A DNA stretch of 64,000 nt from Candidatus Komeilibacteria bacterium RIFOXYD1_FULL_37_29 (GCA_001818495.1 MHKS01000005.1:250038-314037), one strand, 5' to 3'; positions 1 through 31,956 are shown, counted from the first letter of the stretch. Notes: a model not told the origin generated them from the letters alone. Numbers and translations are program-made.

Positions 1-1
1 A

Positions 2-3000
2 GCAACTATCTTTGCTGATAAAGTTTTTGCTCAAGAAGAATTTGGCATCAATGATTTAGCTGATGCTGGGATAGCCTTGGGCACCAGGTCGATTCAAGAG
101 ACCATTGCCGGAATTGTCAATGTATTTTTGGGATTTTTGGGGATACTGGCCACCTTGCTTATTTTGTACGCGGGCTATCTTTGGATGACATCTGCCGGTA
201 ATGCTGAAAAAGTAGCCAAAGCCAAATTATTAATAGCCAGTGCTGTTATTGGCTTGGTGATTATATTGTCGGCTTATGCTATTTCTAGATTTATATTGAG
301 TAGATTATATGAAGAGGCTGGACCAACTGGTCCGGGTGGTGATCCAGGACCTGGTCCGGGTGGATTACCCACTTGTGATGAGCCATTCAATTTAGAAGAT
401 CCTTTGGTCTGCTCTTTAAGTAGAGGTAGTGGACCAGTCGGCAGTGGTTTGACTATCCGCGGTTGGCATTTTGATACTGATAGTGATGGTAATCCTGGCG
501 TTGGTCGAGTAGAAATTGGTGGCGTGGTGGCTGAAGTAGTGGAGTGCGCCGGTTCAGCTATGTGGGATGATAGGCGAGTCAAGGTAAAAATTCCCGATGT
601 TTTAGATCCAGGAAATTATGAAGTTATTTTATATAATGATTTTGTACCAGGTTTAGCCAGTGTAGAAAATCCACATTTTGATTTTACGGTTCTGCCTGGA
701 GTAGCCTCTGTCAATATAGATTGTCTGGTGCCAGATGAAGAAGCTGTTTCAAACCTACCAATTAATGTTCAGATTTTAGGTAATGGTTTTACCGATACTC
801 AAGATAATGTATCTATGACCGCTTGGGTAGCGGGAGCAGAAACGCCAATTGATTTAGCTATTAATTCTTGGTCAGATTTGGAAATCAATGTGGCTGTGCC
901 AGTTGATGCTTTATCTAGTGATATAGTGGTTAGTGTGGGAGCTAGCTTTGACCAAGAATTTTTTAATGTTACTTGCGCTAATGATCCGGAGTGTTCTTCT
1001 GGCTGTTGTAGTGATAATTCTTGCGTTGATTTAGCGATTTGCCAAGGAGCTGATATCCCTGGAGCCAATGCCCCGGTCATACAATCCATATCTCCAGAAG
1101 ATGGAGAAGAAGGAAGTCTCGTTACTATTTTTGGTTATAATTTTGGTAATGACCCGGGGGCAGTTACTTTTGAAGGAGCCCCAGGAGATTTGCCATCGGT
1201 TTTAAGTGGTGGCGTTTGTATTGATGTTTGGACCAATGAATATATTGTGATGGGAGTACCAGCCGGAGCCAACGGAGTTTTAAATGTCGTAATTACTCAA
1301 GCAGCCGGGGCCGGAGGAGAAAGTAGCGATCCTTATCCTGGTTTTGATCGAAATGATATTGTCCGACCAGGTCTTTGTAGTCTTAGCACCGACGAGGGAC
1401 AATACGGCGATGTTTTAGCTATCAGTGGTATAAATTTTGCGGCGACTGACGAAGTTTATTTTGATACAGTCGTTAGTTATGATACCAATATAATTTCAGC
1501 CAACAATGCGACCGCTGAAGTGCCAAATGTAGTTGGTAATCTGGGTGTTAGTTTGCAAACAGTAGCTGATGTGGCTAGTAATTTTTTACCTTTTTCAGCC
1601 TTAGCGATTGGTGGGGGCGGACCAATTATTAGCGAGTTGTCTCCAGACAACGGACCGGTAGATTCTTATGTGACTATTATGGGTTCTAATTTTGGAGATA
1701 ACGTAGGTTTAGTTTTATTTGATCTAGACAATGACCCAGGCAATGGTAATGAAGTACCGGGTAGTTTTGATTTTCCGGTAGTTTGTGGTGATTATTGGTT
1801 TGACAATTATATTATTGTCAAAGTGCCGGCTGGTCCTTGGGTAATTGGTAATGATTATCCAATCAGAGTGCAAAGAAATCCCGACGGTGCTTTGAGTAAT
1901 GATTTTGATTTTACTATTACTGATGTTGAGCCGGGACCACAGATTTGTTCAGTCAGCCCAGACAATGGTCCAATAGGAAATTTGGTAACTATTTCGGGAG
2001 AAAATTTTGGACCAAATTTAGGTAACGTTTTATTTTATAATTCCGTACCAGCCGGAGCTATTGCTAATTGGAGCTCTAATCAGGTTTTTGGAGTAGAGAT
2101 TCCAGTCGGAGCAGTCACTGGCCCTTTGATAGTTAGAGATTCAGCCGGCAATGATAGCAACGGAGTAGCTTTTAGTGTTGGCGCTTGTAGCAATGACTTG
2201 CAATGCGGTGCGGATGTTTGTTGTCCTGGGGAAAATGGTAATTATTGTGCCGCATCCTGCGATATAGTTTTAAATGCTTGTGAATATACCTGGGAAGTTA
2301 GTACCCAAGCGGATCCTTTTGAACTTCATTATAACTATAGTTGTGTTAGTGGTCTTCAATCTCCAACTCCTTGGCCTGATGAGCATGAAGGCGTTGGTGC
2401 CGATGGATTTTTGGCTCCCCAATCATCTCTTGATGCTTTTATTGATACCAATATTTCCGCTTTATTTACTCGCAATGTGGAAGATGTAGATTTTAATACA
2501 AATAATGTAGAGGTGTGGGAGTGTGATGACGGCGCAGTATTTAATCCGGCTACTTGTACGGTTGAAATTTTTGACAATGATGGAATTTTGGAAATTATCA
2601 ATCACAATAGTGACCGAGAAGGTTTTACTTTTAATCCAGCTAATAATTTATTAGCCAATCATTGGTATCAAGTTCGTTTGGGAACATTTAATGCCGAAGT
2701 GGGGGCTGATAGCTGGACACCTGATCCAGTAAATGATGCTTGGCATTTTAAAACTAGGGACAGTGATGTAATGTGCGAGGTTTCTACAGTGGCTGTTACC
2801 CCACAGAGCCCACAGGCCAACATGTATCCTAGTCGAGAAAAGACTTTTACTGCTTCGCCTTTGGCTGATAATTGTAATATCTGCGGTGGAGATTATGATT
2901 GGCAGTGGTCTTTGGGTCCTGACCCAGCGCCGATAGCAGATTATGCTACTATTGTTGGGCCATTTATTAACATGAGTGTTAATCAGGGTTACACTAGGAT

Positions 3001-6000
3001 AGAAGGTGGTCCAATGTCCACACAGTTAGTCACTGATCCAAATCATATTACTTTAATAGCTGAGAATTCTAATTATGGAATATCCGGTGAGTCTTATCCA
3101 ATTATCTTGGCGCCAATTTTAAGAGTAGAAGATAATGTGCCATCTTGTAGTGACTCTTGTACCAATGTAGCAGTCTGGGCAGATTTTAATACAGTGTTGA
3201 GTGGACCATTAAATATAAATGATTTTGCTATCTATCAATGTCTGGATGCTGATTGTAGTGGCTGGGACATTGGTACAAATTATACTAATAATTTAGACTC
3301 TTACGAAGTGCCGGGTGATGGAGTATATCGGGTGGATATTTTGCACGATCCTTTACCAGCCAATGAAAACTATATTGTTATTATTGATGAAACAGTCACC
3401 AATGTTCATGGTTATCCATTGGGATTGGATTATACTTGGGATTTTGGTGTTAGTGATACTAATTGTAGCATCACGGGCGCAGATATTTTGCCAGATAATT
3501 ATACAGCCAACTCTTTAAGCAATATTAATTATCGGGGCTATGCTTTGGCCAATGCTGGCTCTTGCGGTACCCAAGCTATCCAATGTGAAAATTGTCTTTG
3601 GAATTGGAGCAGTAGTAATCCAGCTATCGCTACTATTTTACCAGGCGGAGCAGGAGAACGGACAGTGCCGGCTACGCCAATAGCCAATGGCAATACTAAT
3701 ATAAATTTGGAAATTGATGGTACTCTCTTGGGACTTGGCTCAGCCAACAACAGCACACCTTTGACAGTAGATGTAGCTGGAGCAGATGTAGATTTTACCG
3801 AATTATCCGTTGATAATTATTTCCCCAATTGTGGCGCTTGTACCAATTCTATTGCCGAAGTTTGGTTTAATTCCAATTTGCAATTAGCTACGGTTAATAA
3901 TAATAGCGTCAGAATTTTTGATATTACCGACGGAGTTTATGATAATTCTGGTGTAACAGTTATTGCTAATAGGCATGTGATTTTAGATCATGGGCTATTT
4001 GATTTAGGACATGATTATCGAATTGAAGTAACCGACACAGTTTTAAATAGTAGTAACGATAATATTTTAGGCGGTTGGCAATCGCCAGTGATTACTATTG
4101 AAAATGATGGTTGTCTAGCTGATGCAGCCTGGGTTGATCCAGTGGTGGCTACCGCTGGCGCCAGTGATGCTATAGCTTATCGGGCTGTCACTACGTATGA
4201 TTCTCCAACTTGCGGACCAGCGCCGGTTGATTGTGACAGCTGTACCTTTGATTGGTTAAACAACGCTTTGGGTAGTTTCAATCAAACTGATGTTCAGTAT
4301 CCTATTTTTATGACCTTGGCTAATGTCAATGATGGTGATAGTGCTGTGATGACTTTAAATGTTTGGGAAGGCGCCAACGTTTTGCCAGTCACTGACGGAA
4401 CATTAAATATAGATCTTAGTATTGATGGTGGTAATTCTTTAAATATTATAGATAGTTGGCCGGATTGTGACGGTGCTTGTGATAATTCTCAGGTGGGAGT
4501 CAGGTTTAATACAGCTATAGACGAAACTACTTTGGGCGGTCAATATTCTATCACCGATGTTACCATTGGGGCAGTAGTAACTAGTGGCTATACACTTACC
4601 GGAGGGGACAGAACTTTGATTATAGAACATTTACCTTTGGTTTTGGGTCATGATTATGCGGTGCTGGTTAGTCAGGGCATCGCCAATGTTGATGGTAATT
4701 CTTTGCCAGGGCCGTTTAGTTTTGATTTTACAGTTGGTGAGGCAGAATGTCAGATTACCTCAGTCAATGTTGAGCCGGCTAGTACTACAGCTGTAGCTAG
4801 CCAGGGCATTACTTATAATGTAGAAACTTTGGCCAATACTGTGGCTTGCGGTAATTTGCCAGTTTATTGTGATAGTTGTACTTACAGTTGGTCTGATTTA
4901 CCTGACTTGGGAGCTTTTAATAATGCTACTTTACAAAATCCAATTTTTACCACGTCTCCAGCAGTGGTTAATGGTGATATCATCACTATTGAAGCTGATG
5001 TAGTAGACCAAGGAACTTTGTTTGAAGACAGTGGACAAATAAATATAGTGATTGGTCCAGCAATAAATCCAACGGTTAACTTAATAGGATTTTTCCCGCC
5101 AGATGAAATCTTAATGTGTATCAATGCCGTCCCATATTTCGAATTTGATATTAGTAATGGTGATTTGGATAGGCAGAGTTTGATAGACCAGGCGATTTTC
5201 TTAGAGATAGATGGCACACCAGTTAGTTTTTCAGTGAGATTTTTAGAGTTAAATCCAGGCATTTTATCAGCTATTTACGAGCCAGCTAATGTTTTGGATA
5301 GGGGTACCATTTATTTTTTCGGTTTTATTAACTTAGGACAAGTCAGAGCCGAAGGTGGTGGGCCAGTGGGTGTCAATTTACCAGAACCTTTAAATAATCA
5401 TCTAGGTAATCTCGGCAGATTTTTAATGACCTTAGATGAGGAGTGTCCTATTCAGCATGTAGAAATTTATCCGGCAGCAGATTCTTTTACTTGTATAGAT
5501 AACAATGGTTGTGATGATGATGAGGGGGCTATGATCGGTAACCAGCATTTATACCAGAGTGTAGTCTATGATATTCAAAATAATATACTAGGACAAGCTC
5601 TTTCTACTTATGCTTGGTCCTCTAGTGATAATAATATAGTTGACCCAGAAAGTTTGAATGATCCGGAAATTTTAGGCACAGCTGGGGAAAATGGTATTGC
5701 CCATTTGAATTTAGAAGTTTTCCTAAATACTGATCCAGCTGATGTTTTTAATACTAATAATACAGTGGAGGTAAATACCTGTCAGAATCCTTGGCCAAAT
5801 TTGGCTACTTATCCCTGGAATGACAATACTTTGCCGGATATGAATTTCTCCACTTATTATTGTGAAGAATATGGAATACCAGGCGAAACGATTTTGCCAC
5901 ATATGGATATTCCAAATATTATAAATTCTCCAGATCCCAATGTCATTAGAGAATACATTACTACGATTGAATATCCAATGGCTTTAAATGGGGCTAGTTC

Positions 6001-9000
6001 TTATCTTGGTTCTTTGGCTTATAATGAAAAATCAAACGATGATTCTTGGGCCAAAAAGTTAGTAGCTTTATTTAAACCAGTCAGGGCTAACAGCCAAGGT
6101 AATCCGACAGTTGATATTATCGCTTTTAGAGTCATGAATAATTCAGAGCATCTTTCTATAATCGATTGGTATACCAAAAATGCTCCCAATCCAGAAGGTG
6201 GACAAACTATAACTATCAACGGTTACGAAGCCATGCAAGTCGGCGCTTCAATCTATATAGCGGCCACCAATATTGAAGGTGGAACAATTTATACCAATGT
6301 CTATATAATTGCTCATAATATTGGAGCCAATGCTACGACTTTAGAAATTTATAATCAGTTAGTTGAAAATTTCAAATTAAATGTTAATATTGGTACTACT
6401 TTGGCTGGTACCTGTAATGGTCAGACATCTTTATCGTGTTCTAGTGATTTTGACTGCCCAAATTATTGTGATAATTTTGCTGATAATAATCAGGCCGATT
6501 GTCTAGCCAGTGGCTCAAATTGGCTACCTGATAGTTGTGATGCCTCACTTCTAAAATTGCGTCGGGATACCAAGCGTCTCAGTGATTTGGTTAATATCAA
6601 TGAAGCTGTTTTAGCTTACGGAGAAATGCATAAAGCTTGTGCTAACAACAGCTTGATTTCTTGTCAAAATTCTTCCAATTGTCCGAGCGGGGCAGCTTGT
6701 GTGCCATATTATCCACCTTTAAATTCTGGAACGTATCTAAATGGATCTTCCAATACTCGCTGGCCGTCCTGGCAAGAAACTTTGTCCGGCACTTTGGGCT
6801 ATTCTTTGCCAGAAGATCCAATCAATTTATTTAATGGTTGTAATGATCCTTATAATCCTGAGACTTGTTGGGATGAACAGGCTTTGGAATTTATCTGTCC
6901 AGCCAATTCTTTGGTCTATATGTATAACATCGGGGGCATTGGACAGTCTTACTATTTGGGGGCAAAATTTGAATTTGATATGCAAAATCCTGCCCCGCCA
7001 GTTACTTTTGTTAATAATTTAAATAATCCAGTCACTATGGATTTGGATATCAATACTCCATATTGTGATGCTATTGTGTTAAATCCTCCGGGAGCTTCAG
7101 CTAGCCCCTATTGTGGTAACGGTGTGATTGATAATGATTACTGTACTGAGCCTGTTTATAATAATCAGGCCGCTTGTCTAGCCGCTGGTGCAGATTGGAT
7201 TGTCAGTGAAGAGTGTGATAACGAATTTTGGAGATTTGCTTGTTCAGAGTCTCCGCCAACTGCTAATCCAGCTATACCAACAGTCGGCAACCATGAATGG
7301 TGGAGAGAGCAGACCATTGGTTGTAATCCTCCTGGAACTATCAATAGTACCGGAGAATTGATTGAATGTACTTGGTATAGACCAAGTCCGCCAATTATTG
7401 CCTCTCAATGTGGCGGTTATTGCGGTGATGGAACTCGCCAGCCTTATTATGAAAGATGTGATGGAGGCTTACCAGCTGAACCTTATCATTGTGCTGAGGC
7501 CGGAGTAAACCCATATTGTGCCGATTGTCAGGTGCTTTGTAACAATGGCACAAATATTTATCCAGCTGCTTTATGTGGTGATGGTATTTGGTCACAACCA
7601 ACAGAACAATGTGATCCAACAGCCAACCCAAACGGTAATGCTGGTTGGGATTGTACGGATGGCGGTAACATTGGTTGTAGTAATAGTTGTCAAAGAACTT
7701 GTACAGTAGGTACTCCTTATCCAGGACTTTGTGGTGATGGTTCTTTTAATCCATTAAATGAAGAATGTGATTATTCTAACTACAGTGCACCACTACCAAT
7801 AAATTCTAGCGCCATAGCTAGTTACAGCTGTACTTTATTTTGTGAGATGAATGGTGAATTTTGTGGTGATGGTGTAGCTCAGTATGAATATCAAGAACTA
7901 TGTGATTGGAATGGAGGATCTTATACCAGTCCCACACCATTATTTTCTGATGAATTTCATCAATATGGTTGTCGGGAAAATGGTTTTTATACAGCTTTAA
8001 ATGGAGCAGACTATGGTGCTTGTACAGCTACTTTGGACGGTTGGTGCGGTGACGGTAATATTCAGGACGGTGTAACATTCCCAGATTATGGAGAAGAGTG
8101 TGATCCGGGAGCACCTTGGGATGAAATAGATCAAAACCCTCCACCACCACTGCCGGAAAATAGTAGTATCAACAATCAGTATTCTTGTGATATTGATTGT
8201 GTGGGCAGAATCGGTGGCTATTGTGGCGATAATGCGGCCAATGAACCATTTGAAATTTGTGACGGCTCAGATTATCCAACCAGGCCAATACCATTTTTCT
8301 CTGGACCAAACAATACTTATGCCTGTGATGCTGATTGTAGTGGTGGGGCAGTAGGTGGTGGCTGGTGTGGCGATGGTACCAAAAATAGCAATTATTACGA
8401 AGCCTGTGATTGGGGTATTGAGGGTGCTCAAGATGCAGACAATTATCCATGGCCCCGGGGAGCTAGCTTGAGTAATTTCTCCAGTGAAATGAATCAGTAT
8501 GTTTGTAGCTCCTGTGTAAATTTTGGTGGCTATTGCGGTAACGGTGTAGTGGATGGTGCTTGCACAGTCAATTGTACTGATTGCGATCAAAATAATAATA
8601 ATTGTCAGAGCTCAGTTGGCTGCACTGCCTTTCAGTGTACCTCCAAGAGTGGCACTTTCTTCCCTTATGAGCAGTGCGATAGCGGTTATGACCCGGCCTA
8701 TTTGGTCAATAAAAATGTCGATATTGTTTACATATTTGATACTTCTGGATCTATGAGTGGAGCGGCTGCCCAATTATGTCAATCTACTGCTACAGTAGTT
8801 AACACCTTAAATACTGAGCATCCAGATATAAATTATCGTATTACTATTTTCCCAATGGGCGATGGCGACGGTACAGATGGAGTGGGTTATGAACTGACAG
8901 CTACGGAAACTGATAATATTCAATATTTTTTTGAGTTAGAAAACGGAGAAGGTACTACAGAACCATGGTACGATGAAGTTTTCGATGCCTTGTATTCCAA

Positions 9001-10813
9001 TTGTCCGCAACTGGTCAATCCGGTTACGGGAGCCACTGTTGATCCAAAAATTAGATATCGTAGCTTATACGATGACGCTACCAACGATATTGATGACCCA
9101 GTTGATATCTATGCCGGTGATACAGTTAATGAATTTTGTCCAGCATATGATGCTACAGAGAATTGGGGTTATGATGTCAAGAGAATAGCCGAGGATTATA
9201 ATTGGCTAGAGGGTTATCATAGAATTATTGTACCGGTCAGCAATGAACACGCTGTTTGTGGAGGACAAGGGGGTGCCAGCGCCAACGAAAATTTTGTTGA
9301 GGTTGATGGAATTTATGATATTTTAGCTGAAGCAGTTAGAGCGGCTAAAATTGATCCATCTAATCCAGTCTTTATAAACCCAGTTTTATGGGGAGCTTCG
9401 GGTATTACGACCATTGGTAGCGCCATTGCTGATGCTACTGGTGGACAATTTACTAGCAATACAGCTGGCTGGGAAGTCCAAACCCTTCAAGTAATCAACT
9501 CTACTATTTGTGATGGCGTCGGCGGTGGTGCTGACGGCAATGATCCAGACGGTCATATGGATTGTGTTTTAGACGACACCTGGGTTCCAGCTGAACCGCC
9601 ACCAGCTCCACCTTGTCGTGTCGAAGGACAATCTTGTAGTTTTATTCCTTGTTGTGCTGGACCGGGACTATTTTGTAATGCTTCTCAAGTTTGTGAAGCG
9701 CCAGCTATACCGCCACCAATGATTACTAGTCCACTGACTGCTAGTGGAGCACCTAGTCAGCCATTTACTTATACTATCACCGCCACCAACAATCCCACTT
9801 CATATGGCGCGGCCAATTTACCAGCTGGTTTATCAATCAATACCACTACTGGCGTGATATCGGGCAGTACGGCTGTTTTGGGAACACGCCTAGTCACTAT
9901 CACGGCTACCAATGCTACTGCAACAGACAGCGAAACCCTCAATCTGACTATTGCCGCAGTCCCTGTTATTACTAGCCCCCTAGCTGCCACCGGAACAGCT
10001 AATCAGCCGTTTACTTATACTATTACCGCTACCAATAATCCTACTAGCTTTAACGCTGAGCCATTCTTACCTCAAGGATTATCTATAAATTTAGCCACCG
10101 GAGTAATTTCTGGTGCTACAGCGACTGTGGGGGTACACAATATTACTATTAGTGCCAGCAATAATATCGGTAGTGATTCAGAAACTTTGGTTATTACTAT
10201 TTTGGCGCCTATACCAGTTATTACTTCTCCTTTGACGGCTACTGTGCCAGTTGGCCAGGCTTTTACCTATACTATTACCGCTAGTGGTAACCCTACCAGT
10301 TTTAATGCCGTTGGTTTACCAGCCGGGCTATCTGTAAATACTACTAGTGGTGTAATATCAGGTACGCCAACCATCGCCGGAACCTACAATGTTACTATTA
10401 GCGCTACCAACGGCAGTGGCACCGGTTCAGCTACTTTGGTTTTGACTGTGACGTTAAGCGCGCCAGTCATTACTAGCGCCAATACAGCCACAGCCACACT
10501 AACCAGGTTTTTCGGTTATTTGATTACTGCTACCAACAGTCCAAGCACCTTTAATGCCGTTGGTTTACCAGCCGGACTATCTATTGATACTAATACTGGT
10601 GTAATATCAGGTATTCCGACAGCTACTGGTGTTTACAGTGTCACTATTAGTGCCACTAATGCCGCTGGTACTGGTACTAGCGTATTAACTATTACGGTTA
10701 ATAATTGTAGTGGTGCTAATCAAGCTTGTAGCGCTACTCAACTTTGTTGTTCAGGAACATCTTGTAGTGGTGGTACTTGTTCAATTGTTTCTGATCGAGA
10801 AAGCTCGTTCTAA
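2..10813 (+). CDS. giant surface/adhesin-like protein, 5' end outside window (>3,578 aa): pilin-like double-TM anchor, IPT/TIG-like and Ig-like domains, Cys-rich CGDG..ECD repeat field, vWA domain, four tandem He_PIG-like Ig repeats
   Basis: One uninterrupted frame. It stays open from nt 2 up to the TTG at 77 (ATIFADKVFAQEEFGINDLADAGIAL...), so the true start is probably upstream of the window. Motifs read in the translation: TM-SAGNAEKVAKAK-TM hairpin, G/P linker, repeated SP(E/D)(D/N)GxxGxxVTIxGxNFG, repeated (Y/L/W/F)CGDG...(E/Q)CD, DIVYIFDTSGSMSG (DxSxS MIDAS, nt 8738-8752), and 4x ~82-aa PFTYTITATNNPTSF..LPAGLSINTTTGVISG units. Confidence 0.9.
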   Translation, partial: ATIFADKVFAQEEFGINDLADAGIALGTRSIQETIAGIVNVFLGFLGILATLLILYAGYLWMTSAGNAEKVAKAKLLIASAVIGLVIILSAYAISRFILSRLYEEAGPTGPGGDPGPGPGGLPTCDEPFNLEDPLVCSLSRGSGPVGSGLTIRGWHFDTDSDGNPGVGRVEIGGVVAEVVECAGSAMWDDRRVKVKIPDVLDPGNYEVILYNDFVPGLASVENPHFDFTVLPGVASVNIDCLVPDEEAVSNLPINVQILGNGFTDTQDNVSMTAWVAGAETPIDLAINSWSDLEINVAVPVDALSSDIVVSVGASFDQEFFNVTCANDPECSSGCCSDNSCVDLAICQGADIPGANAPVIQSISPEDGEEGSLVTIFGYNFGNDPGAVTFEGAPGDLPSVLSGGVCIDVWTNEYIVMGVPAGANGVLNVVITQAAGAGGESSDPYPGFDRNDIVRPGLCSLSTDEGQYGDVLAISGINFAATDEVYFDTVVSYDTNIISANNATAEVPNVVGNLGVSLQTVADVASNFLPFSALAIGGGGPIISELSPDNGPVDSYVTIMGSNFGDNVGLVLFDLDNDPGNGNEVPGSFDFPVVCGDYWFDNYIIVKVPAGPWVIGNDYPIRVQRNPDGALSNDFDFTITDVEPGPQICSVSPDNGPIGNLVTISGENFGPNLGNVLFYNSVPAGAIANWSSNQVFGVEIPVGAVTGPLIVRDSAGNDSNGVAFSVGACSNDLQCGADVCCPGENGNYCAASCDIVLNACEYTWEVSTQADPFELHYNYSCVSGLQSPTPWPDEHEGVGADGFLAPQSSLDAFIDTNISALFTRNVEDVDFNTNNVEVWECDDGAVFNPATCTVEIFDNDGILEIINHNSDREGFTFNPANNLLANHWYQVRLGTFNAEVGADSWTPDPVNDAWHFKTRDSDVMCEVSTVAVTPQSPQANMYPSREKTFTASPLADNCNICGGDYDWQWSLGPDPAPIADYATIVGPFINMSVNQGYTRIEGGPMSTQLVTDPNHITLIAENSNYGISGESYPIILAPILRVEDNVPSCSDSCTNVAVWADFNTVLSGPLNINDFAIYQCLDADCSGWDIGTNYTNNLDSYEVPGDGVYRVDILHDPLPANENYIVIIDETVTNVHGYPLGLDYTWDFGVSDTNCSITGADILPDNYTANSLSNINYRGYALANAGSCGTQAIQCENCLWNWSSSNPAIATILPGGAGERTVPATPIANGNTNINLEIDGTLLGLGSANNSTPLTVDVAGADVDFTELSVDNYFPNCGACTNSIAEVWFNSNLQLATVNNNSVRIFDITDGVYDNSGVTVIANRHVILDHGLFDLGHDYRIEVTDTVLNSSNDNILGGWQSPVITIENDGCLADAAWVDPVVATAGASDAIAYRAVTTYDSPTCGPAPVDCDSCTFDWLNNALGSFNQTDVQYPIFMTLANVNDGDSAVMTLNVWEGANVLPVTDGTLNIDLSIDGGNSLNIIDSWPDCDGACDNSQVGVRFNTAIDETTLGGQYSITDVTIGAVVTSGYTLTGGDRTLIIEHLPLVLGHDYAVLVSQGIANVDGNSLPGPFSFDFTVGEAECQITSVNVEPASTTAVASQGITYNVETLANTVACGNLPVYCDSCTYSWSDLPDLGAFNNATLQNPIFTTSPAVVNGDIITIEADVVDQGTLFEDSGQINIVIGPAINPTVNLIGFFPPDEILMCINAVPYFEFDISNGDLDRQSLIDQAIFLEIDGTPVSFSVRFLELNPGILSAIYEPANVLDRGTIYFFGFINLGQVRAEGGGPVGVNLPEPLNNHLGNLGRFLMTLDEECPIQHVEIYPAADSFTCIDNNGCDDDEGAMIGNQHLYQSVVYDIQNNILGQALSTYAWSSSDNNIVDPESLNDPEILGTAGENGIAHLNLEVFLNTDPADVFNTNNTVEVNTCQNPWPNLATYPWNDNTLPDMNFSTYYCEEYGIPGETILPHMDIPNIINSPDPNVIREYITTIEYPMALNGASSYLGSLAYNEKSNDDSWAKKLVALFKPVRANSQGNPTVDIIAFRVMNNSEHLSIIDWYTKNAPNPEGGQTITINGYEAMQVGASIYIAATNIEGGTIYTNVYIIAHNIGANATTLEIYNQLVENFKLNVNIGTTLAGTCNGQTSLSCSSDFDCPNYCDNFADNNQADCLASGSNWLPDSCDASLLKLRRDTKRLSDLVNINEAVLAYGEMHKACANNSLISCQNSSNCPSGAACVPYYPPLNSGTYLNGSSNTRWPSWQETLSGTLGYSLPEDPINLFNGCNDPYNPETCWDEQALEFICPANSLVYMYNIGGIGQSYYLGAKFEFDMQNPAPPVTFVNNLNNPVTMDLDINTPYCDAIVLNPPGASASPYCGNGVIDNDYCTEPVYNNQAACLAAGADWIVSEECDNEFWRFACSESPPTANPAIPTVGNHEWWREQTIGCNPPGTINSTGELIECTWYRPSPPIIASQCGGYCGDGTRQPYYERCDGGLPAEPYHCAEAGVNPYCADCQVLCNNGTNIYPAALCGDGIWSQPTEQCDPTANPNGNAGWDCTDGGNIGCSNSCQRTCTVGTPYPGLCGDGSFNPLNEECDYSNYSAPLPINSSAIASYSCTLFCEMNGEFCGDGVAQYEYQELCDWNGGSYTSPTPLFSDEFHQYGCRENGFYTALNGADYGACTATLDGWCGDGNIQDGVTFPDYGEECDPGAPWDEIDQNPPPPLPENSSINNQYSCDIDCVGRIGGYCGDNAANEPFEICDGSDYPTRPIPFFSGPNNTYACDADCSGGAVGGGWCGDGTKNSNYYEACDWGIEGAQDADNYPWPRGASLSNFSSEMNQYVCSSCVNFGGYCGNGVVDGACTVNCTDCDQNNNNCQSSVGCTAFQCTSKSGTFFPYEQCDSGYDPAYLVNKNVDIVYIFDTSGSMSGAAAQLCQSTATVVNTLNTEHPDINYRITIFPMGDGDGTDGVGYELTATETDNIQYFFELENGEGTTEPWYDEVFDALYSNCPQLVNPVTGATVDPKIRYRSLYDDATNDIDDPVDIYAGDTVNEFCPAYDATENWGYDVKRIAEDYNWLEGYHRIIVPVSNEHAVCGGQGGASANENFVEVDGIYDILAEAVRAAKIDPSNPVFINPVLWGASGITTIGSAIADATGGQFTSNTAGWEVQTLQVINSTICDGVGGGADGNDPDGHMDCVLDDTWVPAEPPPAPPCRVEGQSCSFIPCCAGPGLFCNASQVCEAPAIPPPMITSPLTASGAPSQPFTYTITATNNPTSYGAANLPAGLSINTTTGVISGSTAVLGTRLVTITATNATATDSETLNLTIAAVPVITSPLAATGTANQPFTYTITATNNPTSFNAEPFLPQGLSINLATGVISGATATVGVHNITISASNNIGSDSETLVITILAPIPVITSPLTATVPVGQAFTYTITASGNPTSFNAVGLPAGLSVNTTSGVISGTPTIAGTYNVTISATNGSGTGSATLVLTVTLSAPVITSANTATATLTRFFGYLITATNSPSTFNAVGLPAGLSIDTNTGVISGIPTATGVYSVTISATNAAGTGTSVLTITVNNCSGANQACSATQLCCSGTSCSGGTCSIVSDRESSF

Positions 10814-10834: not shown

Positions 10835-11731
10835 ATGTTTGATGACTTAAAACAAGACAGTCCAATAAAATCAACTGCTCCCAATGGAGCGTCCAATACG
10901 AACAACTCGACAGTTCGTCAACCCCAAAGAGCGACTGGTATTGATGATATGTTTGATGATGTGGATCCGGTAGCTAGTGCAAGTAGCGGTGGACCAGTTG
11001 ATCCCAACAAACCTAGTGCTGTAAAGTCGGGTAAGATTAAGGTAGTTTCTCAAACCAACTTACCTACCAGCGCCCAGGCGGCTTCTCAGGTGGCTAGCTA
11101 TCCAGTTATACCACAGCCAGTTCGACCATCTAGCATGCCCACTATGTCACTAGATGATTCTATGGTTGTGACCGACGGAAGATCCAATGGCGTTATGAGA
11201 AAAATAATTATTACTTTTTTAGTCATTGTTCTTTTGGCCTTGGTCGGCGGGGGAGTTTATTATTTCTTTTTAAGAACTAATGGTTTGGACAATAACGCTC
11301 AGCCAAACGATAATGCCAATAATAATGTGGCTAATGAAAATAATAATCAAGTGGATGTATTTAATGAATCCGACCAAGAGCCGACAATCAATGAAGATGA
11401 ATTGGATGATGATTTTGATGGACTGAGCAATGGTTTAGAAAAGACCTATGGCACCAATCCTTTGGAAGTAGATAGTGATAATGACGGAGTTTTTGATCAA
11501 GATGAGGTCGAAACCCACAAGACTGATCCCTTAGCTGATGATAGTGATAGCGACGGACTTAGTGATTATCAGGAAATTATTATTTATAAGTCCGATCCCA
11601 ATGATCCCGATACAGATGGAGACACATTTTTAGACGGTGTGGAGGTGCTAAATGGTTATAATCCACTAGGTGCTGGTAAATTGGAAGAGGCTACTTCTAC
11701 TAGTAATTTAAATACTAACAATACTTTATAA
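10835..11731 (+). CDS. single-pass membrane protein with N-rich linker and thrombospondin type-3-like (DxDxDGxxDxxE) Ca-binding repeats
   Basis: 298-aa ORF starting 22 nt after the giant gene. TM segment IIITFLVIVLLALVGGGVYYFFL. Repeats DSDNDGVFDQDE / DDSDSDGLSDYQE / DPDTDGDTFLDGVE. Confidence 0.75.
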   Translation: MFDDLKQDSPIKSTAPNGASNTNNSTVRQPQRATGIDDMFDDVDPVASASSGGPVDPNKPSAVKSGKIKVVSQTNLPTSAQAASQVASYPVIPQPVRPSSMPTMSLDDSMVVTDGRSNGVMRKIIITFLVIVLLALVGGGVYYFFLRTNGLDNNAQPNDNANNNVANENNNQVDVFNESDQEPTINEDELDDDFDGLSNGLEKTYGTNPLEVDSDNDGVFDQDEVETHKTDPLADDSDSDGLSDYQEIIIYKSDPNDPDTDGDTFLDGVEVLNGYNPLGAGKLEEATSTSNLNTNNTL

Positions 11732-11735: not shown

Positions 11736-12854
11736 ATGTTTAATGATCAGAATGTAAATAATCATTCGAGTGGCTTTGGTCGGGGCGATAATAACGGTTT
11801 TGGTAAAAAAAATAGCGCAGCTTTGGGCAATATTTTAGGTGTACAGAAAGAGGTGGTTAATGTCCATGCTATGCCATCCAAGTTTGTCACCACCACTCAG
11901 CGAACCGGCCATTTAACTACTGCTAGTGGAGCCAAAGGATCGGGGCGCAAATTATTATTAATTACTATTTCCTTGATTTTAGTAATCATTGTAGTAATTG
12001 GGGGAATTATGTATTTTGTTAATGGTGGAAAAGAAAAACTCAATTTTAGCCAACTATTTGGTCAAAATTTAGATTCTAATAATGTAGCCAATGAAAGTGT
12101 CAATCAGAATATAAATGACAACACAAACGACAACACCAATGAAGTAGTCAATGACAATACCAATCAGAATATAAACGACAACACCAACGACAACACCAAT
12201 GAAGTAGTCAATGACAATACCAATCAGAATATAAATGACAACACAAACGACAACACCAACGAAACTCCAAATTATCAGCCCGCTGTTGATACAGATGGAG
12301 ACGGTTTAACTACTGAAGAAGAATTGGTCTTTGGCACCAATCCGGATTTGGAGGACACCGATAAAGATGGTTATAAAGATGGACAAGAAATAACTAGTCT
12401 TTATAATCCTTTAGTACCAGCCCAAGATTTATTTTCTTCGGGCCTAGTTAAAAAATTTATTTCCTCCAATTATGGTTATACATTTTTTAGACCCAACACT
12501 TGGACAGCCAAGGTGGTCGGTACAGTTAGTAATATTATTATTTTGCCGGATTCTGAATCTGGTGAATCATTTAATATTGAAATAACGACTAATCCAGAAA
12601 ATAAAACACTTAGCCAGTTATTAGATGAAACGGGTAGTGTTTTTGTTGACGCTGAAAATTATAGTCTAGCTGGAGCACCGGCCTATCGTTCATTAGATGG
12701 CCGTAAAGTATCGGCTATCAGTAACGGTTTTTTATTCGTTATTTCTCACAATGTTAGTGGTTTAGGTGAAGTTAGTTTTGATAATATTTTTGAGATGATG
12801 TTAAAAAGTTTTACCTGGACGGAAATAGAGAGCCCCGATGTCAATGAATTATAA
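11736..12854 (+). CDS. paralogous single-pass membrane protein with NDNTN tandem repeats, TSP3-like repeats and a C-terminal globular domain
   Basis: 372-aa ORF with the same architecture as the preceding gene: disordered N-terminus, TM LLLITISLILVIIVVIGGIMYFV, N/D/T-rich repeats, DTDGDGLTTEEE / DTDKDGYKDGQE. Confidence 0.75.
   Translation: MFNDQNVNNHSSGFGRGDNNGFGKKNSAALGNILGVQKEVVNVHAMPSKFVTTTQRTGHLTTASGAKGSGRKLLLITISLILVIIVVIGGIMYFVNGGKEKLNFSQLFGQNLDSNNVANESVNQNINDNTNDNTNEVVNDNTNQNINDNTNDNTNEVVNDNTNQNINDNTNDNTNETPNYQPAVDTDGDGLTTEEELVFGTNPDLEDTDKDGYKDGQEITSLYNPLVPAQDLFSSGLVKKFISSNYGYTFFRPNTWTAKVVGTVSNIIILPDSESGESFNIEITTNPENKTLSQLLDETGSVFVDAENYSLAGAPAYRSLDGRKVSAISNGFLFVISHNVSGLGEVSFDNIFEMMLKSFTWTEIESPDVNEL
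12101..12259. repeat. 60-bp tandem repeat, about 2.7 copies, in-frame (NQNINDNTNDNTNEVVNDNT)
   Basis: Units start at 12101, 12161 and 12221 (caatcagaatataaa[t/c]gacaaca[c/]...). Units differ at only a few positions. Confidence 0.9.
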
Positions 12855-16716: not shown

Positions 16717-16751
16717 GGAAAATAGTTATCCACTTGTGGGCTATTTTTTTT
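16717..16751 (+). terminator. putative intrinsic terminator after nrdR
   Basis: Imperfect hairpin gaaaatag..ccac/gtgg..ctatttt followed by a T8 run (16743-16750). Confidence 0.5.
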
Positions 16752-16779
16752 CATGTTAAGATCATATTACTTTGACAAT

Positions 16780-16952
16780 TCAATCAGGGAAGTGAGGTGT
16801 GAATCCTCTACAGTCCTAGCTACGGTAAGCTCCATGCAAGTATTATGGGGACAAGTCCGATACCTGAGATATTTGCTTTCTCCTAAGGAGAGAAGAGCTA
16901 AATTTATTAACCAATAACTTTAACTCTGCTTTTCTTAGGGCAGAGATTTTTT
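16780..16952 (+). promoter_or_regulatory. cobalamin (B12) riboswitch-like leader with terminator expression platform
   Basis: aatcaGGGAAgtgaGGTGtgAATCCtctaCAGtCCtaGCtACgGTaagc (16783-16830) matches the conserved cobalamin-aptamer core (GGGAA..GGTG..AATCC..GC.G.CC..AC.GT). A B12-box-like agtccgatacctg lies at 16854-16866. Terminator hairpin ctctgc/gcagag plus T-run at 16924-16952. Confidence 0.6.
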
Positions 16953-16978: not shown

Positions 16979-17065
16979 ATGAACCCCGTTAGAAATTCAT
17001 AAAATATAGCGGGGGAATAAAGAGTAAATATAATATTATGAAAGTTACTAAAATTTTTAACGGGG
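16979..17065 (+). promoter_or_regulatory. second copy of the start-codon-flanking hairpin plus MNPVRNS mini-ORF
   Basis: atg aac ccc gtt aga aat tca taa at 16979-17002. Left arm ccccgttagaaatt (16984-16997) pairs with aatttttaacgggg (17052-17065; 14 bp, one G.U). The loop contains the ATG at 17038. Confidence 0.5.
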
Positions 17066-18837
17066 CGAAAAAAATTATTCTTATTATTTTGGCCATAATT
17101 ACTTTGGTTATTCCCAGTTTGATTTTGGCAGACAATAATACCACCATTAGTTATTTAAAAGGACAAAATCAAAATGCCTGGATTAGTCAGGCTCTTACGG
17201 CTGCTTCAGTAGAAGAAGTGGATATTTCCTATCTAGACTATCAAACTACTGACTTGATGACAGCTGCTAAAAATATTTTGGTTTTAGCCGCTGTAAAATC
17301 TCCGGAAACAGTCAAAATAAATCAGCTAGTAGAAGTTATAGTTACTAGCAAAAATAATGGCCAATTTGGTTCAGTAGATTTATTAAATGATGATTTTTGG
17401 GCTATTTTAGCTTTGGCCTCAGTCAAGCATTTAGATAATACTCAAGATGTTAAAAATTTTATTTTAGAGCACCAAAACAGCGACGGTGGTTGGAGTTGGG
17501 CCAAAAATGGCGCCTCTGATAGCAACGACACAGCCGCCGCTATTATGGCTTTACTTGATTGGGGACTTACTAGCTCATCAACCGAGATCACCAGAGCTTT
17601 GGGTTATTTAAAGAGCGTTCAAAATGATGATGGTGGTTTTGCTTATGATATAGGTAGTCTATCTGATGGAGCTTCGACCGCTTGGATTATGGCGTCTTTA
17701 AATAAAGCAGAGATTAGCGCTAGTAGTTGGCAAAAAAATAATAATAACCCCGTAGCTTTTTTAGAAAATCTTAGACAAGATGACGGGTCATTTTTGTGGA
17801 TGCCGTCTGATGACCACGGTTCTAGTATGGTCACAGCTTATGCTTTATTAGCCCTAAGTGGCCAGAGCTATCCAGTAAATTATATAGACATAGGTACAGA
17901 AGACGAAGAACCGATTTCTGGTCATAGTTTGCGGATTGAAGGGCCAGAGGGCACTATTTGTTTGGCTAGTGGCTTACAGGCCCAAACAGTTTTGGATTTA
18001 TTGGAATTGGGCGCTGAGGTCTGTGATTTTGAATATGTGCTTCAAGACAGCTCTTATGGTACTTATGTTTCGGCTATTGGTGGCTTGAGTGGTCAGGGGA
18101 TGAATGGCTGGCAATATTTTGTCGATTGGCAACCGGCTATGGTAGCGGCTCCTGATTATATTTTAGAGGGTCATCAGGGTGTCTTGTGGGCTTATGGTGG
18201 TTGGCCTTTTTATCCGGTCAGAGTAGAAATAAATAATACCCGTTTTCAAACCGGAGATACTTTGCTAGCTAGTTTCAATTATTATGATGGAGAAAAGTGG
18301 CTACCGCTTGCCAGTCAAGCTGTGATTTTTGGTAGCGATACCTATCAAACAGATAATTTGGGTAAATTTATTTTTACTTTAAACACGGACGGCATTTGGC
18401 CGCTATTTTCTCAACAGTCCGATCAGTATGTTAGAAGTAATCGGGAGTATATTATTGTTGGTAGTGGAGTGTCTAAAGTAGTGGACTTATCAGTCAAAAT
18501 AGAATCTGGTAGTGGTGGAGTAGGTGATAATACTATTGCTTTTAGTATTGATAAATCTAGCATTGATTTTGGTACCTTAAAACCCGGCCAAGCAGCTGAC
18601 ACTATTGTTTCGCTGGTTAATACCGGCAATGTGGATATTCATATTGAAGCCAGTGTCTTGGGTGATCAGCTTTTTCAAAATTTTACTAGCTTAGATCAGA
18701 ATTTATGGGAAGATTATAATATAGCTTTGTCTAGCAGTGCTTCTCGTCCAGTCAATGTCGGATTGTCTGTCCCTACTACTTTTAATACCCCTGGTCAAAA
18801 GGCCGGTCAATTGATTTTTTGGGCCACTAGTCAATAA
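17038..18837 (+). CDS. secreted/membrane-anchored transcobalamin-like protein: prenyltransferase-like alpha/alpha-toroid repeats + DUF4430 (transcobalamin-like C-terminal) domain + Ig-like C-terminal domain; candidate B12-capture protein
   Basis: N-terminal signal/TM KKIILIILAIITLVIPSLILA. Toroid repeats SDGGWSW, DDGGFAY, DDGSFLW. DUF4430-like block SLRIEGPEGTI...TVLDLL...SSYGTYVSAIGGL..GMNGWQYFVDWQPA..APDYILEGHQGVLWAYG. Preceded by the cobalamin-riboswitch-like leader. Confidence 0.6.
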   Translation: MKVTKIFNGAKKIILIILAIITLVIPSLILADNNTTISYLKGQNQNAWISQALTAASVEEVDISYLDYQTTDLMTAAKNILVLAAVKSPETVKINQLVEVIVTSKNNGQFGSVDLLNDDFWAILALASVKHLDNTQDVKNFILEHQNSDGGWSWAKNGASDSNDTAAAIMALLDWGLTSSSTEITRALGYLKSVQNDDGGFAYDIGSLSDGASTAWIMASLNKAEISASSWQKNNNNPVAFLENLRQDDGSFLWMPSDDHGSSMVTAYALLALSGQSYPVNYIDIGTEDEEPISGHSLRIEGPEGTICLASGLQAQTVLDLLELGAEVCDFEYVLQDSSYGTYVSAIGGLSGQGMNGWQYFVDWQPAMVAAPDYILEGHQGVLWAYGGWPFYPVRVEINNTRFQTGDTLLASFNYYDGEKWLPLASQAVIFGSDTYQTDNLGKFIFTLNTDGIWPLFSQQSDQYVRSNREYIIVGSGVSKVVDLSVKIESGSGGVGDNTIAFSIDKSSIDFGTLKPGQAADTIVSLVNTGNVDIHIEASVLGDQLFQNFTSLDQNLWEDYNIALSSSASRPVNVGLSVPTTFNTPGQKAGQLIFWATSQ

Positions 18838-19596: not shown

Positions 19597-19686
19597 GGAG
19601 AGGTGCTAGAGTGGTTGAATAGGGTGCTCTCGAAAAGCACTAGTCCTGAAAGGGACTCGGGGGTTCAAATCCCTCCCTCTCCGCCA
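19597..19686 (+). tRNA. tRNA-Ser (anticodon CGA), class II with long variable arm, CCA encoded
   Basis: Hand-folded cloverleaf. Acceptor GGAGAGG/CCTCTCC; D stem CTA/TAG; anticodon stem GTGCT/AGCAC with loop CTCGAAA; variable-arm hairpin AGTCC/GGACT; T arm GGGGG-TTCAAAT-CCCTC; discriminator G plus CCA. Confidence 0.9.
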
Positions 19687-20051
19687 TCCTTCGCTAAAGC
19701 TACGGAATGACTAGCCATATGTTATATTATACTTACATTTTATTAAGCTCAAAATCTCATATTTTTTATTTTGGTTCAACGAATAATTTAAAAAATAGAT
19801 TGGAGCTGCATAATAGCGGCAAGGTAACATCAACTAAATCGCATATACCTTGGAAATTAGTTTGGTATTGTGTATTTGAAACGGAAAAACAGGCAAGAGA
19901 TTTTGAGCTTTATTTAAAAACAGGGTCAGGAAAATCTTTTGCTTATAAAAGACTTATTTCCGTGGCTTTAGAGAAGGATTTCAGGGAAGGGAGAATAGGT
20001 AGTCCGAAGCGGAAGCCTTAGCTTTTGCGAAGGATACCTCCCTCTCCGCCA
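19687..20051 (+). mobile_element. 365-bp GIY-YIG gene cassette bounded by 14-bp inverted repeats and a 15-bp duplication of the tRNA-Ser 3' end
   Basis: cctccctctccgcca occurs at 19672-19686 (tRNA 3' end) and again at 20037-20051. IR-L tccttcgctaaagc is at 19687-19700 and IR-R gcttttgcgaagga at 20021-20034 (1 mismatch). Confidence 0.55.
19707..20021 (+). CDS. small GIY-YIG (URI-domain) nuclease family protein
   Basis: YYTYILL...IFYFGSTNNLKNRLELHN...E...K matches the GIY...YIG...R...E layout of COG2827-type proteins. The start may instead be the ATG at 19719. Confidence 0.8.
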   Translation: MTSHMLYYTYILLSSKSHIFYFGSTNNLKNRLELHNSGKVTSTKSHIPWKLVWYCVFETEKQARDFELYLKTGSGKSFAYKRLISVALEKDFREGRIGSPKRKP

Positions 20052-20158
20052 GATTACCAAGTTTGAACCCAAGCAAAATAAGGGTTTTGTGCTATTGAAA
20101 AGCCGGTGTCCGAATAAGGTGCTGATTTTTTAAAATCCTTATCAAATGAGTAAATTTT

Positions 20159-20167
20159 TGGTAAAAT
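20159..20167 (+). promoter_or_regulatory. extended -10 promoter element (tggtaaaat) upstream of mod
   Basis: A TGn-TAAAAT element 24 nt upstream of the ATG at 20191. The same TGnTAnAAT style recurs at other operon starts in this window. Confidence 0.4.
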
Positions 20168-20190
20168 AGAGTTAATAAGAATAGAATTAT

Positions 20191-22020: not shown

Positions 22021-22024
22021 TTAT

Positions 22025-24262: not shown

Positions 24263-24265
24263 ATT

Positions 24266-25450: not shown

Positions 25451-25793
25451 GTTTAAATAGAATAATCCACCTCATTTTTGCTCTTATCTGATTTTAGCTT
25501 CGGTGTCTCAAACCATTCTGGATGAACCTTGAACATAGCCCTTAATTCGCGTATACTTTTATCAATATCCTTAAATTTGAACCACTTTTTTGGTTCAAAC
25601 TTCGGGACATCGCCACCGCCACTCGATTCGCATTTTGCTTCGCAAAAAGCTCACTCGTGATCTACGGTGCTAAAGCACCTTCGACCATTCTAATTCTAGA
25701 ATCGAGTGTATTGAGCGAGCGTAGCGAGTCGAAAGGCACGCGCTATCGTGCTAGCATAAGTGTATTAAAAAATTTCTATATAGTTATTAAAAT

Positions 25794-26387
25794 ATGGATC
25801 AACAAACAATCAATACATACAACAGGATGTCACAAGAGTATGATGATGAAACAGCTGATTTTTGGGAGCGATTTCCTCGAACATTTCTTGATAAATTTAT
25901 TAAGCTATCCGGTAATAAAATACTTGATGTTGGGAGCGGACCAGGTAGAGATGGTTTGATACTTCAACAGGCCGGTAAAAATGTTGTCTGTGTGGATGCT
26001 TCTGCAGCAATGGTGAAATTGTCTTCAGACAGAGGTTTAAACTCTATAGTAGCCAGTTTCGACAATTTACCATTTGAAAATAATTCATTTGACGGCGTAT
26101 GGTCATATACTGCTCTTTTACATATTCCCAAAAAATCTATCGATACCCCTCTTCAAGAGATTTTTCGTATTATCAAACCTTCAGGTATTTTTGCTCTTGG
26201 TCTGATTGAAGGGGACACAGAAGGATACAAAGAAAGCTCTGAAGTGACTATGCCTCGTTGGTTTAGTTTCTATCAGAAAGACGAAGTTGAAAATTTATGC
26301 CAAAAGCACGGATTTGAGCTGGTTTACTTTGAGACTTTTAAACCAGGGTCCAAGCCCTATTTGAATTTTATTTTTCGAAAAATATAA
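25794..26387 (+). CDS. class I SAM-dependent methyltransferase
   Basis: 197 aa with motif I ILDVGSGPGRDG and post-I/II motifs (VVCVDAS, FDGVWSYTALLHI). Confidence 0.8.
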   Translation: MDQQTINTYNRMSQEYDDETADFWERFPRTFLDKFIKLSGNKILDVGSGPGRDGLILQQAGKNVVCVDASAAMVKLSSDRGLNSIVASFDNLPFENNSFDGVWSYTALLHIPKKSIDTPLQEIFRIIKPSGIFALGLIEGDTEGYKESSEVTMPRWFSFYQKDEVENLCQKHGFELVYFETFKPGSKPYLNFIFRKI

Positions 26388-26416
26388 TACTACTAGAACA
26401 TTTTTATCTATCTCAA

Positions 26417-26690: not shown

Positions 26691-26707
26691 TTAAGAAATG
26701 GTAGTAT

Positions 26708-31955: not shown

Positions 31956-31956
31956 A

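Follow-up and report, generated by a model that had tools for sequence, protein, structure and literature searches.

A giant VirB2-like pilin-hairpin protein from a Komeilibacteria genome, probably a fibrillar surface adhesin

Introduction

Much of bacterial diversity falls within the candidate phyla radiation (CPR, or Patescibacteria), whose members are believed to spend their lives attached to other cells. The DNA analyzed here is a stretch of 64,000 nt from the bacterium RIFOXYD1_FULL_37_29 of Candidatus Komeilibacteria (GCA_001818495.1, MHKS01000005.1:250038-314037), called the window below, which opens inside one giant gene. What does a gene that makes up 1.2% of a genome encode in such an organism, and how would its product be held at the cell surface? 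The host is a groundwater bacterium of the CPR class ABY1 with a genome of 904 kb and 837 coding sequences, in line with an earlier note on the window, which pointed to an episymbiotic small-genome bacterium and to pilin-like domains common in CPR. We propose, with a probability of about 0.6, that the product of this gene is a giant fibrillar adhesin on the surface of this ultra-small bacterium, anchored by an N-terminal pilin-like hairpin.

Results

The giant open reading frame and its start

The open reading frame (ORF) runs from nt 2 to a stop codon at nt 10811-10813 on the + strand, which gives 3,603 codons and 16.9% of the window, close to the 17% of the earlier note. That note also saw the gene run off the 5′ edge, which holds only as an effect of the window, as public contigs that reach far enough encode a full-length product of 3,617 aa and just 14 codons were cut off. 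The part encoded in the window is a very acidic protein (pI ~4.05) of ~381 kDa with 133 cysteines; residue numbers below refer to the translation of nt 2-10810. The first features of the gene are:

2..10813, + strand: giant ORF (reading frame, public contigs, identity across five assemblies)
2..31, + strand: predicted C-terminal end of a Sec signal peptide (..ATIFADKVFA/QEEFG, the slash marking the putative cut), last 10 residues (AxA-like motif and full-length ortholog N-termini)
83..295, + strand: T4SS_pilin (VirB2-like) domain, aa 28-98 (Pfam PF18895, NCBIfam NF045849, hydropathy, ortholog identity)
311..370, + strand: Gly/Pro-rich flexible linker after the hairpin (sequence)

The first start codon listed in the frame of the window is a TTG at nt 77, which the earlier note considered an unlikely start. 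It was right to do so, because the residues upstream of this codon are conserved and align across orthologs. The window opens with ...ATIFADKVFA/QEEFGINDLADAG, which aligns with the N-termini of the orthologs at the related loci L007, L008 and L010. The ortholog N-termini read MKKVFSLLISNLVLALTFANKAFA/QEEFGINDLADAG (general pattern MKK...A.A/QEEFGINDL), with signal peptides of the form MKKVFSLLISNL..ANKAFA/QEEFG. By this comparison the missing 14 residues are the predicted start of a ~24-aa Sec signal peptide, and the AxA-like motif together with the ortholog N-termini suggests where it would be cleaved. An exact DNA look-up of the first 53 nt of the window among metagenome contigs gave no match.

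The ORF is genuine and no artefact of assembly, as five assemblies of independent origin (NCBI, JGI with two samples, Logan, and ENA) show 100% nucleotide identity to it over up to 9,979 nt. The neighboring 298-aa gene was found on 23 public contigs, and wherever the contig is long enough the product encoded upstream of it has 3,617 aa and carries precomputed T4SS_pilin, Big_5 and He_PIG matches. Misassembly, chimeric repeat collapse or a decaying pseudogene could be argued from one further ENA assembly (L004), in which a frameshifted variant splits the gene into products of 744 aa and 2,799 aa. This explanation is effectively refuted by the identity of the other five assemblies, made with different pipelines, and by the collinear orthologs at 30-67% identity, which retain the open frame in many genomes. 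In addition, no DNA-level tandem repeats were found within the gene, which rules out a recent repeat expansion or a misassembly of repeats. Antisense ORFs of 81-126 aa within the gene were taken as chance.

The N-terminal hairpin

The data showed that the N-terminus of the protein is a VirB2-like pilin domain, as the earlier note had recognized when it described a hairpin of two transmembrane (TM) helices of the TrbC/VirB2 pilin-like type common in CPR bacteria. The Pfam family PF18895 (T4SS_pilin) matched with 39.4 bits against a gathering cut-off of 26.6, and with 35.9 bits when the whole protein was the query. The NCBIfam model NF045849, the Mycoplasma-ICE "Mbov_0395 pilin-like conjugal transfer protein", scored 42.3 against a cut-off of 40 with the N-terminal 460 aa, and 39 with the whole protein. 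TrbC (PF04956), of the same clan as PF18895, gave an E value of 0.019 only, which is under its cut-off. Hydropathy defined exactly two TM-grade segments, TM1 at aa 33-64 (nt 98-193) and TM2 at aa 70-102 (nt 209-307), joined by the basic loop TSAGNAEKVAKAK (nt 188-226) with a net charge of +2, and the N-segment ahead of the hairpin has a net charge of -4. Past aa 102 there is no further hydrophobic segment, no C-terminal hydrophobic tail and no sorting motif, and the C-terminus reads ...CSGGTCSIVSDRESSF. Hence, the protein lacks the sorting motif and hydrophobic tail of Sortase, PEP-CTERM or other C-terminally sorted proteins, and the absence of a C-terminal anchor claimed in the earlier note is confirmed by both hydropathy and sequence.

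The two TM-grade segments, the charges of the loop and of the N-segment, and the lack of a C-terminal anchor argue for the hairpin as the membrane anchor. Two short relatives (P0087 and P0099) have a vWA-like ectodomain at the N-terminus and a T4SS_pilin hairpin at the C-terminus, an order that fits a hairpin with both termini outside. Like members of the T4SS_pilin family, the protein scores above the curated cut-off of the hidden Markov model (HMM) and has a predicted signal peptide followed by two hydrophobic helices with a short basic loop between them. It departs from the family in its size, 3,617 aa in place of a small stand-alone subunit of about 70-150 aa, and in its position, which adjoins neither virB4 nor other genes of a type IV secretion system (T4SS) among the ORFs scanned in the window and in the flanks of six related loci. 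Its closest relatives by N-terminus are pilin+Big_5/TIG fusions of 290-770 aa, many of them partial.

The Ig-like stalk

The remainder of the protein is composed of the following features:

392..2134, + strand: six IPT/TIG Ig-like domains, aa 131-211, 237-313, 354-433, 454-513, 537-625 and 643-711 (Pfam TIG, internal profile, internal repeats)
974..1042, + strand: six-Cys knot-like linker 1, C..C..CC..C..C (sequence)
2186-2260, 9614-9694 and 10706-10780, + strand: further six-Cys knot-like linkers, four copies in all (sequence)
2441..5101, + strand: four tandem two-domain modules, Big_5 plus Ig-like with CxxC..W.W, aa 814-1700, period ~215 aa (Pfam, internal profiles with 4+4 copies, repeats, signatures)
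5102..5773, + strand: region resembling a fifth, divergent Big_5/Ig module, aa 1701-1924 (ortholog alignment)
5774..6421, + strand: conserved domain of unassigned fold (QNPWP...; VDIIAFRVM..NFKLN), aa 1925-2140 (ortholog alignment)
6422..7411, + strand: conserved Cys-rich region (LKLRRDTKRL...NFEYD...), aa 2141-2470 (ortholog alignment)
7415..8611, + strand: array of four-Cys repeats CG[DN][GN]-x-E.CD (motif count, internal profile, internal repeats)
8714..9571, + strand: divergent integrin beta-I-like (vWA) domain that contains a ~100-aa insertion, aa 2905-3190 (family profile matches)
9716..10702, + strand: four He_PIG Ig-like repeats with an 83-aa period, aa 3239-3567 (Pfam, internal repeats and profile)

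The Ig-like modules named in the earlier note were found, those of the TIG type in larger number. Its "at least four" IPT/TIG modules became six copies by an internal profile, with Pfam TIG matches of 48.2 and 71.1 bits (cut-off 20.9). The Ig-like modules with CxxC..W.W strings are four, each of which follows one of the four copies of Big_5 (25.0-30.5 bits, cut-off 23.6), and the four He_PIG repeats, 50-67% identical to each other, matched with 151 bits (cut-off 24). The six-Cys linkers showed only weak similarity to Toxin_16 and Dickkopf_N in Pfam. The fate of the Cys repeats, described as about nine copies of a Myxococcus-type CGDG..ECD repeat, was mixed. Nine motif copies were indeed counted at aa 2371-2870, including one at aa 2371, and seven by the internal profile, but neither TIGR02232, the Myxococcus cysteine-rich repeat, nor DUF4215 matched at E<=1 in Pfam and NCBIfam searches with segments covering aa 2161-3340. 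Only the half-motif CGDG..E.CD is alike, and the C2-C3 spacing is longer here.

The part from aa ~1700 to 2470, which the earlier note did not describe, is conserved and unannotated. The region at aa 1701-1924 matched no family in Pfam and no PDB entry, aa 1925-2140 had no Pfam, NCBIfam or PDB-profile match, and the Cys-rich region at 6422..7411, with 62 invariant columns among 9 orthologs, had no PDB-profile or family match. Likewise, phmmer and profile searches against the PDB with aa 1701-2420, 2401-2884, 2140-2470 and 2028-2135, and searches of Pfam and NCBIfam, gave no match. The segment aa 2186-2215 (nt 6557-6646; LKLRRDTKRLSDLV.., in full LLKLRRDTKRLSDLVNINEAVLAYG) bears a tentative likeness to the helix at the beginning of the globular head in type IV pilins and pseudopilins, for which Pfam, NCBIfam and PDB-profile searches gave no support. 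Most orthologs (P0033-P0042) carry at aa ~2030 (nt ~6090) an extra insert of ~110 aa, FN3-like by eye only, which is absent from this protein and from L008.

The vWA-like domain

The earlier note had also predicted a vWA domain with an intact metal ion-dependent adhesion site (MIDAS). The DxSxS motif is indeed intact as DTSGS (aa 2913-2917, nt 8738-8752), and the conserved Glu is that of ENWG (nt 9158-9160). The fifth MIDAS ligand is Asn3081 (nt 9242-9244), an Asp in most aligned relatives and an Asn in all six assemblies of this gene, which makes the site less than fully canonical. Pfam VWA, however, gave no family at E<=1 on the giant protein, phmmer against the PDB gave no match either, and in NCBIfam this region reached no more than a weak 11 bits, against the vWA start of TIGR03788.

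The fold was recognized through the relatives of the region. An exhaustive HMMER search found 63 of them, and a word-indexed search with the same region gave no match in an indexed database that seems to miss the giants. About 10 of the relatives are fragments or giants of 2.7-3.4 kaa (thousand residues) with the same N-terminal hairpin, and ~50 are shorter proteins that share MDTSGSM..ALC, E.WG, IPxSDEGP, VSPI and TGG; Pfam VWA matched 4/41 of the shorter ones. Some members of this subfamily (P0047-P0099) contain cohesin/dockerin, collagen or FG-GAP domains. When the family profile (alignment A2) was compared with the PDB, the best matches were the beta-I domain of integrin beta-6, at full length with an E value of 3.8e-4, and integrin alpha-L I domains, and the DxSxS, Glu and Asp positions aligned with the integrin metal ligands. 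This match identifies aa 2905-3190 as a divergent integrin-beta-like vWA domain of Rossmann-like alpha/beta fold with an insertion of ~100 aa. A single-sequence AlphaFold2 model of the region had a mean pLDDT of 39 and was unusable.

Of the HMM searches proposed in the earlier note, those with PF18895, TIG and He_PIG thus passed their cut-offs, and those with Pfam VWA and TIGR02232 gave no match.

Conservation among orthologs and the pilus alternative

The same note suggested a comparison with related genomes, and both collinear orthologs and six syntenic loci were found. The orthologs, proteins of 2.4-3.5 kaa in Patescibacteria, are labeled in public databases only as "hypothetical", "Ig-like" or "IPT/TIG domain-containing". 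Their identity to the giant is 55-59% for L007, 60% for L008 (collinear over aa 1-3281) and 67% for L010. When nine giants were aligned, conservation was highest in the first 100 residues, with a mean identity of 0.66 versus 0.22-0.56 elsewhere. The number of Big_5/Ig modules, the FN3-like-looking insert and the C-terminal tail are variable; the He_PIG tail is lineage-specific, present here and, by a precomputed match, in L008, and most of the other orthologs lack it, their sequence ending with the vWA domain or a Cys knot.

The six loci (L007, a Komeilibacteria metagenome-assembled genome; L008; L010; L011; L012; and L014, from Magasanikbacteria) have in common, down to ~30% identity, the gene order S26 signal peptidase, hisS, rpsU, yqeY, a T4SS_pilin+Big_5 protein of 527-769 aa, the giant (2,412-3,478 aa there), TSP3 membrane proteins, ybeY, dgkA, ftsA and ftsZ. 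By analogy with these loci, a ~540-aa pilin+Big_5 paralog probably lies in the host just upstream of the window, and we take the giant gene to be one member of a pilin-fusion gene pair that is inherited vertically within a fixed cassette of the chromosome. That the gene is part of a mobile island can be ruled out, as synteny is kept down to 30% identity. No T4SS gene was found among the ORFs scanned from 10.8 to 63.6 kb of the window or in the ±10 kb flanks of the six loci (for L007, by ORF list and pilin HMM only), and in none of these loci does the giant stand beside virB4. The pilin-domain HMM found no second hairpin in the window.

These observations bear on a different view of the hairpin, in which the VirB4-type T4SS of the genome would extract it from the membrane and build it into a pilus-like fiber that displays the adhesive modules. 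The giant would then sit at the tip or serve as a minor subunit, with the ~540-aa paralog next to it, or small pilins from other loci, as the major subunit, and the arrangement would be for conjugative pili what modular pilins such as PilB are for type IV pili. A C-terminal fusion is geometrically feasible, since the pilins of F and T pili expose both of their termini on the outer face of the filament. No part of the protein is more conserved than the hairpin, its extracellular N-segment included, and the hairpin is 60-70% identical to that of the neighboring paralog. This unusual conservation favors the pilus, as does VirB4 in the genome, for which the entry of the host in Table S1 of Quinonero-Coronel et al. 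2025 (PMC12102498) reads "VirB4 present". Moreover, a cultivated Saccharibacterium cannot do without its VirB2-like pilin arrays, no PrgB-type adhesin was detected in CPR by a survey of 2025, and type IV pilin modules fused to vWA or He_PIG provide a precedent (PMC8179133), with PilB (7b7p) among the fold matches.

On the other hand, the cassette and the window offer no T4SS gene within reach, an extension of 380 kDa per subunit is sterically implausible in a homopolymer, and the hairpins located C-terminal to other ectodomains (P0087, P0099) suit a generic anchor equally well. These three points favor a plain anchor, and no pilus of PF18895 proteins is known from any CPR bacterium. We therefore regard incorporation of the giant into a T4SS-built fiber as possible but doubtful. 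The broader proposal that ABY1-class Patescibacteria assemble a new surface fiber from ectodomain-bearing VirB2-type hairpins, with the ~540-aa protein as main subunit and the 2.4-3.6-kaa proteins as adhesive minor or tip subunits, possibly via a chromosomal VirB4, is more speculative and on present evidence unlikely. If true, it would be the first modular conjugative-type pilin, and it would supply the adhesin still missing for the enigmatic T4SS of CPR bacteria, which is essential in the only species in which this was tested.

Neighboring genes and the envelope alternative

The hairpin-anchored giant is followed by two genes for further membrane proteins:

10835..11731, + strand: downstream partner 1, single-pass membrane protein with extracellular TSP3 Ca-binding repeats (domain scan, position kept in L011 and L012)
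11736..12854, + strand: downstream partner 2, single-pass membrane protein containing a TSP3 repeat plus an N/D-rich tandem repeat (domain scan)

Partner 1 begins 21 nt past the stop codon of the giant gene, and this tight spacing was counted in favor of joint action of the giant with the TSP3 proteins. A second gene after partner 1 is also present in L011, with a faint TSP3_bac match, and in L012, with no Pfam match. Both partners have a disordered cytoplasmic N-terminus and extracellular TSP3 Ca-binding repeats, and partner 2 contains a 60-nt tandem repeat (12101-12263) that codes for the N/D-rich units. VirB2-type propilins are processed by signal peptidase I. A type I (S26) signal peptidase gene lies three genes 5′ of the pilin-fusion pair in L008, L010, L011, L012 and L014, a linkage that may be coincidental.

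The neighborhood allows one more interpretation, a surface-layer (S-layer) type scaffold in which the small and giant hairpin proteins with their Ig repeats and the TSP3 membrane proteins would make up a constitutive coat that serves cell integrity or division and not the binding of another cell. The vertically inherited cassette with its fixed housekeeping position by ybeY, dgkA, ftsA and ftsZ would suit such a role, as would a very acidic protein with Ca-binding TSP3 partners, and membrane-anchored S-layer proteins with Ig-like domains have been predicted in Patescibacteria (10.1101/2024.05.28.596244). However, a distal domain of the vWA/MIDAS type and He_PIG repeats are typical of adhesin tips and not of lattice formers, and orthologs differ in the count of their repeat modules and in their C-terminal tail, as adhesins under diversifying pressure would be expected to do. 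A length of 3.6 kaa is also far above the typical size of S-layer proteins. The envelope scaffold is thus the weaker rival, and we consider it quite improbable.

The rest of the window is mostly housekeeping, with ybeY, dgkA, ftsA, ftsZ, nrdR, prfA, comEC, rpsL/G, fusA, tuf, a ribosomal protein cluster, secY, adk and a mraY-like gene, plus one variable island. A cobalamin riboswitch (RF00174) at 16745-16885 on the + strand (34.4 bits, gathering cut-off 31.5) stands directly upstream of the ORF 17038-18837, which encodes a 599-aa protein with a prenyltransferase/squalene-cyclase-like toroid, DUF4430 and a Cep192_D4-like Ig domain; this could be a surface protein that is both regulated by B12 and able to bind it, in an organism of minimal metabolism. 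A tRNA gene at 19597-19683 is followed by the variable island, within 19597-33800. The island contains a GIY-YIG gene, a DNA methylase (20191-22020) and a ResIII helicase (22001-24262) that resemble a type III restriction-modification system, and a Shedu SduA_C defense gene (24266-25450). Its block of low GC content (27-30%) at 26-33 kb contains genes for a carbamoyltransferase and SAM methyltransferases and a ThyA-like gene. The syntenic L011 is without the whole island between nrdR and prfA. Between prfA and comEC lies a 492-aa ORF (34929-36407) with no Pfam match, at the place of which L011 has a 487-aa ORF, likewise with no Pfam match. In L014 (19558-22310) the gene after the 2,412-aa giant encodes a distinct protein of 2,060 aa that contains Pfam VWA and many BACON domains, and the vWA function may be carried by a neighboring gene in some lineages.

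Discussion

Domains of the adhesin type, TIG, Big_5 and He_PIG, were confirmed in the protein and speak for the adhesin explanation. In the mechanism that we propose, the Sec signal peptide would be cut after VFA, and the VirB2-type hairpin would be inserted with both ends outside and the basic loop in the cytoplasm. TM2 would then re-initiate the export of the remaining ~3,500 residues, which would form a disulfide-rich, acidic stalk of six TIG domains, about five Big_5+Ig modules, two conserved domains of unassigned fold and nine Cys repeats. Estimated from ~20 Ig-like domains plus the Cys repeats and globular domains, the length of this stalk could reach ~100 nm if extended. At the far end, the integrin-like vWA domain, presumably metal-dependent, and the four He_PIG repeats would bind a ligand on another cell or surface. 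The partners of the giant, in an envelope module that is inherited vertically, would be the ~540-aa pilin+Big_5 paralog next to it and the two TSP3 membrane proteins. Attachment to other cells, as suggested in the earlier note, is a plausible function for such a protein.

Several observations weigh against this explanation. The hairpin is 79-89% identical among orthologs, compared with 55-67% for the whole protein, which far exceeds what a simple anchor needs; as the extracellular N-segment is included, this conservation points to specific protein contacts. The Asn in place of the fifth MIDAS residue may alter metal binding. The structure model of the vWA domain is of moderate confidence, with a mean pLDDT of 53 and 65-78 in the core. 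The ~550 residues without an assignable fold (aa 1925-2470) could hold a different, non-adhesive activity. Finally, the conserved position beside ftsA/ftsZ and ybeY would agree just as well with a role in the envelope or in housekeeping.

Several known systems resemble the protein in part. The giant vWA adhesins with Ig repeats, such as LapA, related RTX adhesins and the Aeromonas large adhesion protein, likewise have a long stalk of tandem Ig-like domains, an acidic or Ca-associated character and a ligand-binding vWA domain near the far end, and 9no5 and 9das are among the fold matches. These adhesins are substrates of type I secretion systems of diderm bacteria, in which an N-terminal plug retains them in the outer-membrane pore. 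In contrast, the giant is predicted to be exported by Sec in a monoderm-type CPR cell and to be anchored by its N-terminal helical hairpin, and it has no RTX repeats. Compared with the vWA adhesins at the tips of sortase pili (RrgA, SpaC, PitA) and type V pili (Mfa5), it has no LPXTG/sortase signal and no C-terminal anchor of any type. With the beta-I (beta-A) domain of integrin beta subunits it shares the aligned DxSxS, Glu and Asp positions and large insertions in the vWA core, but at only 10-13% identity, with Asp replaced by Asn and no hybrid/PSI context, and the domain belongs to a bacterial subfamily of its own.

With the VirB2-like pilins of Patescibacteria (PF18895; the essential array of Ca. 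Southlakia epibionticum; Mbov_0395, NF045849) the giant has in common the N-terminal ~95 residues, that is a signal peptide, two helices and a short basic loop. In the literature, PF18895 proteins are small, stand-alone VirB2-like pilins, usually arrayed by virB4, whereas here the hairpin carries an ectodomain of ~3,500 aa and its gene belongs to a housekeeping cassette near which no T4SS gene was found. In modular type IV pilins (S. sanguinis PilB, which has a vWA module, and PilC) the logic is the same, an N-terminal pilin carrier with adhesive effector modules, vWA and PF05345 (He_PIG) among them (PMC8179133). They differ in their pilin module (IPR012902), which has a single N-terminal helix and is served by the type IV pilus machinery, while the module here is a VirB2-type hairpin, a putative filament component. 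The most extreme multi-domain type IV pilin cited in that work has 860 aa, against 3,617 aa for the giant.

Hence, the VirB2-like pilin domain and the giant Ig/vWA adhesin are each of a kind already known, and it is their combination that is new; no description of giant pilin-hairpin fusions was found in the searchable literature. The analysis also exposes two gaps, a bacterial subfamily of integrin-beta-like vWA domains that Pfam mostly misses and, within these giants, a long conserved region that lacks an assigned fold. With a VirB2-like hairpin covalently joined to a classical adhesin ectodomain in a lineage-wide cassette, this protein is a concrete candidate for the attachment of these bacteria to other cells and may provide a link between their "pilin" genes and adhesion.

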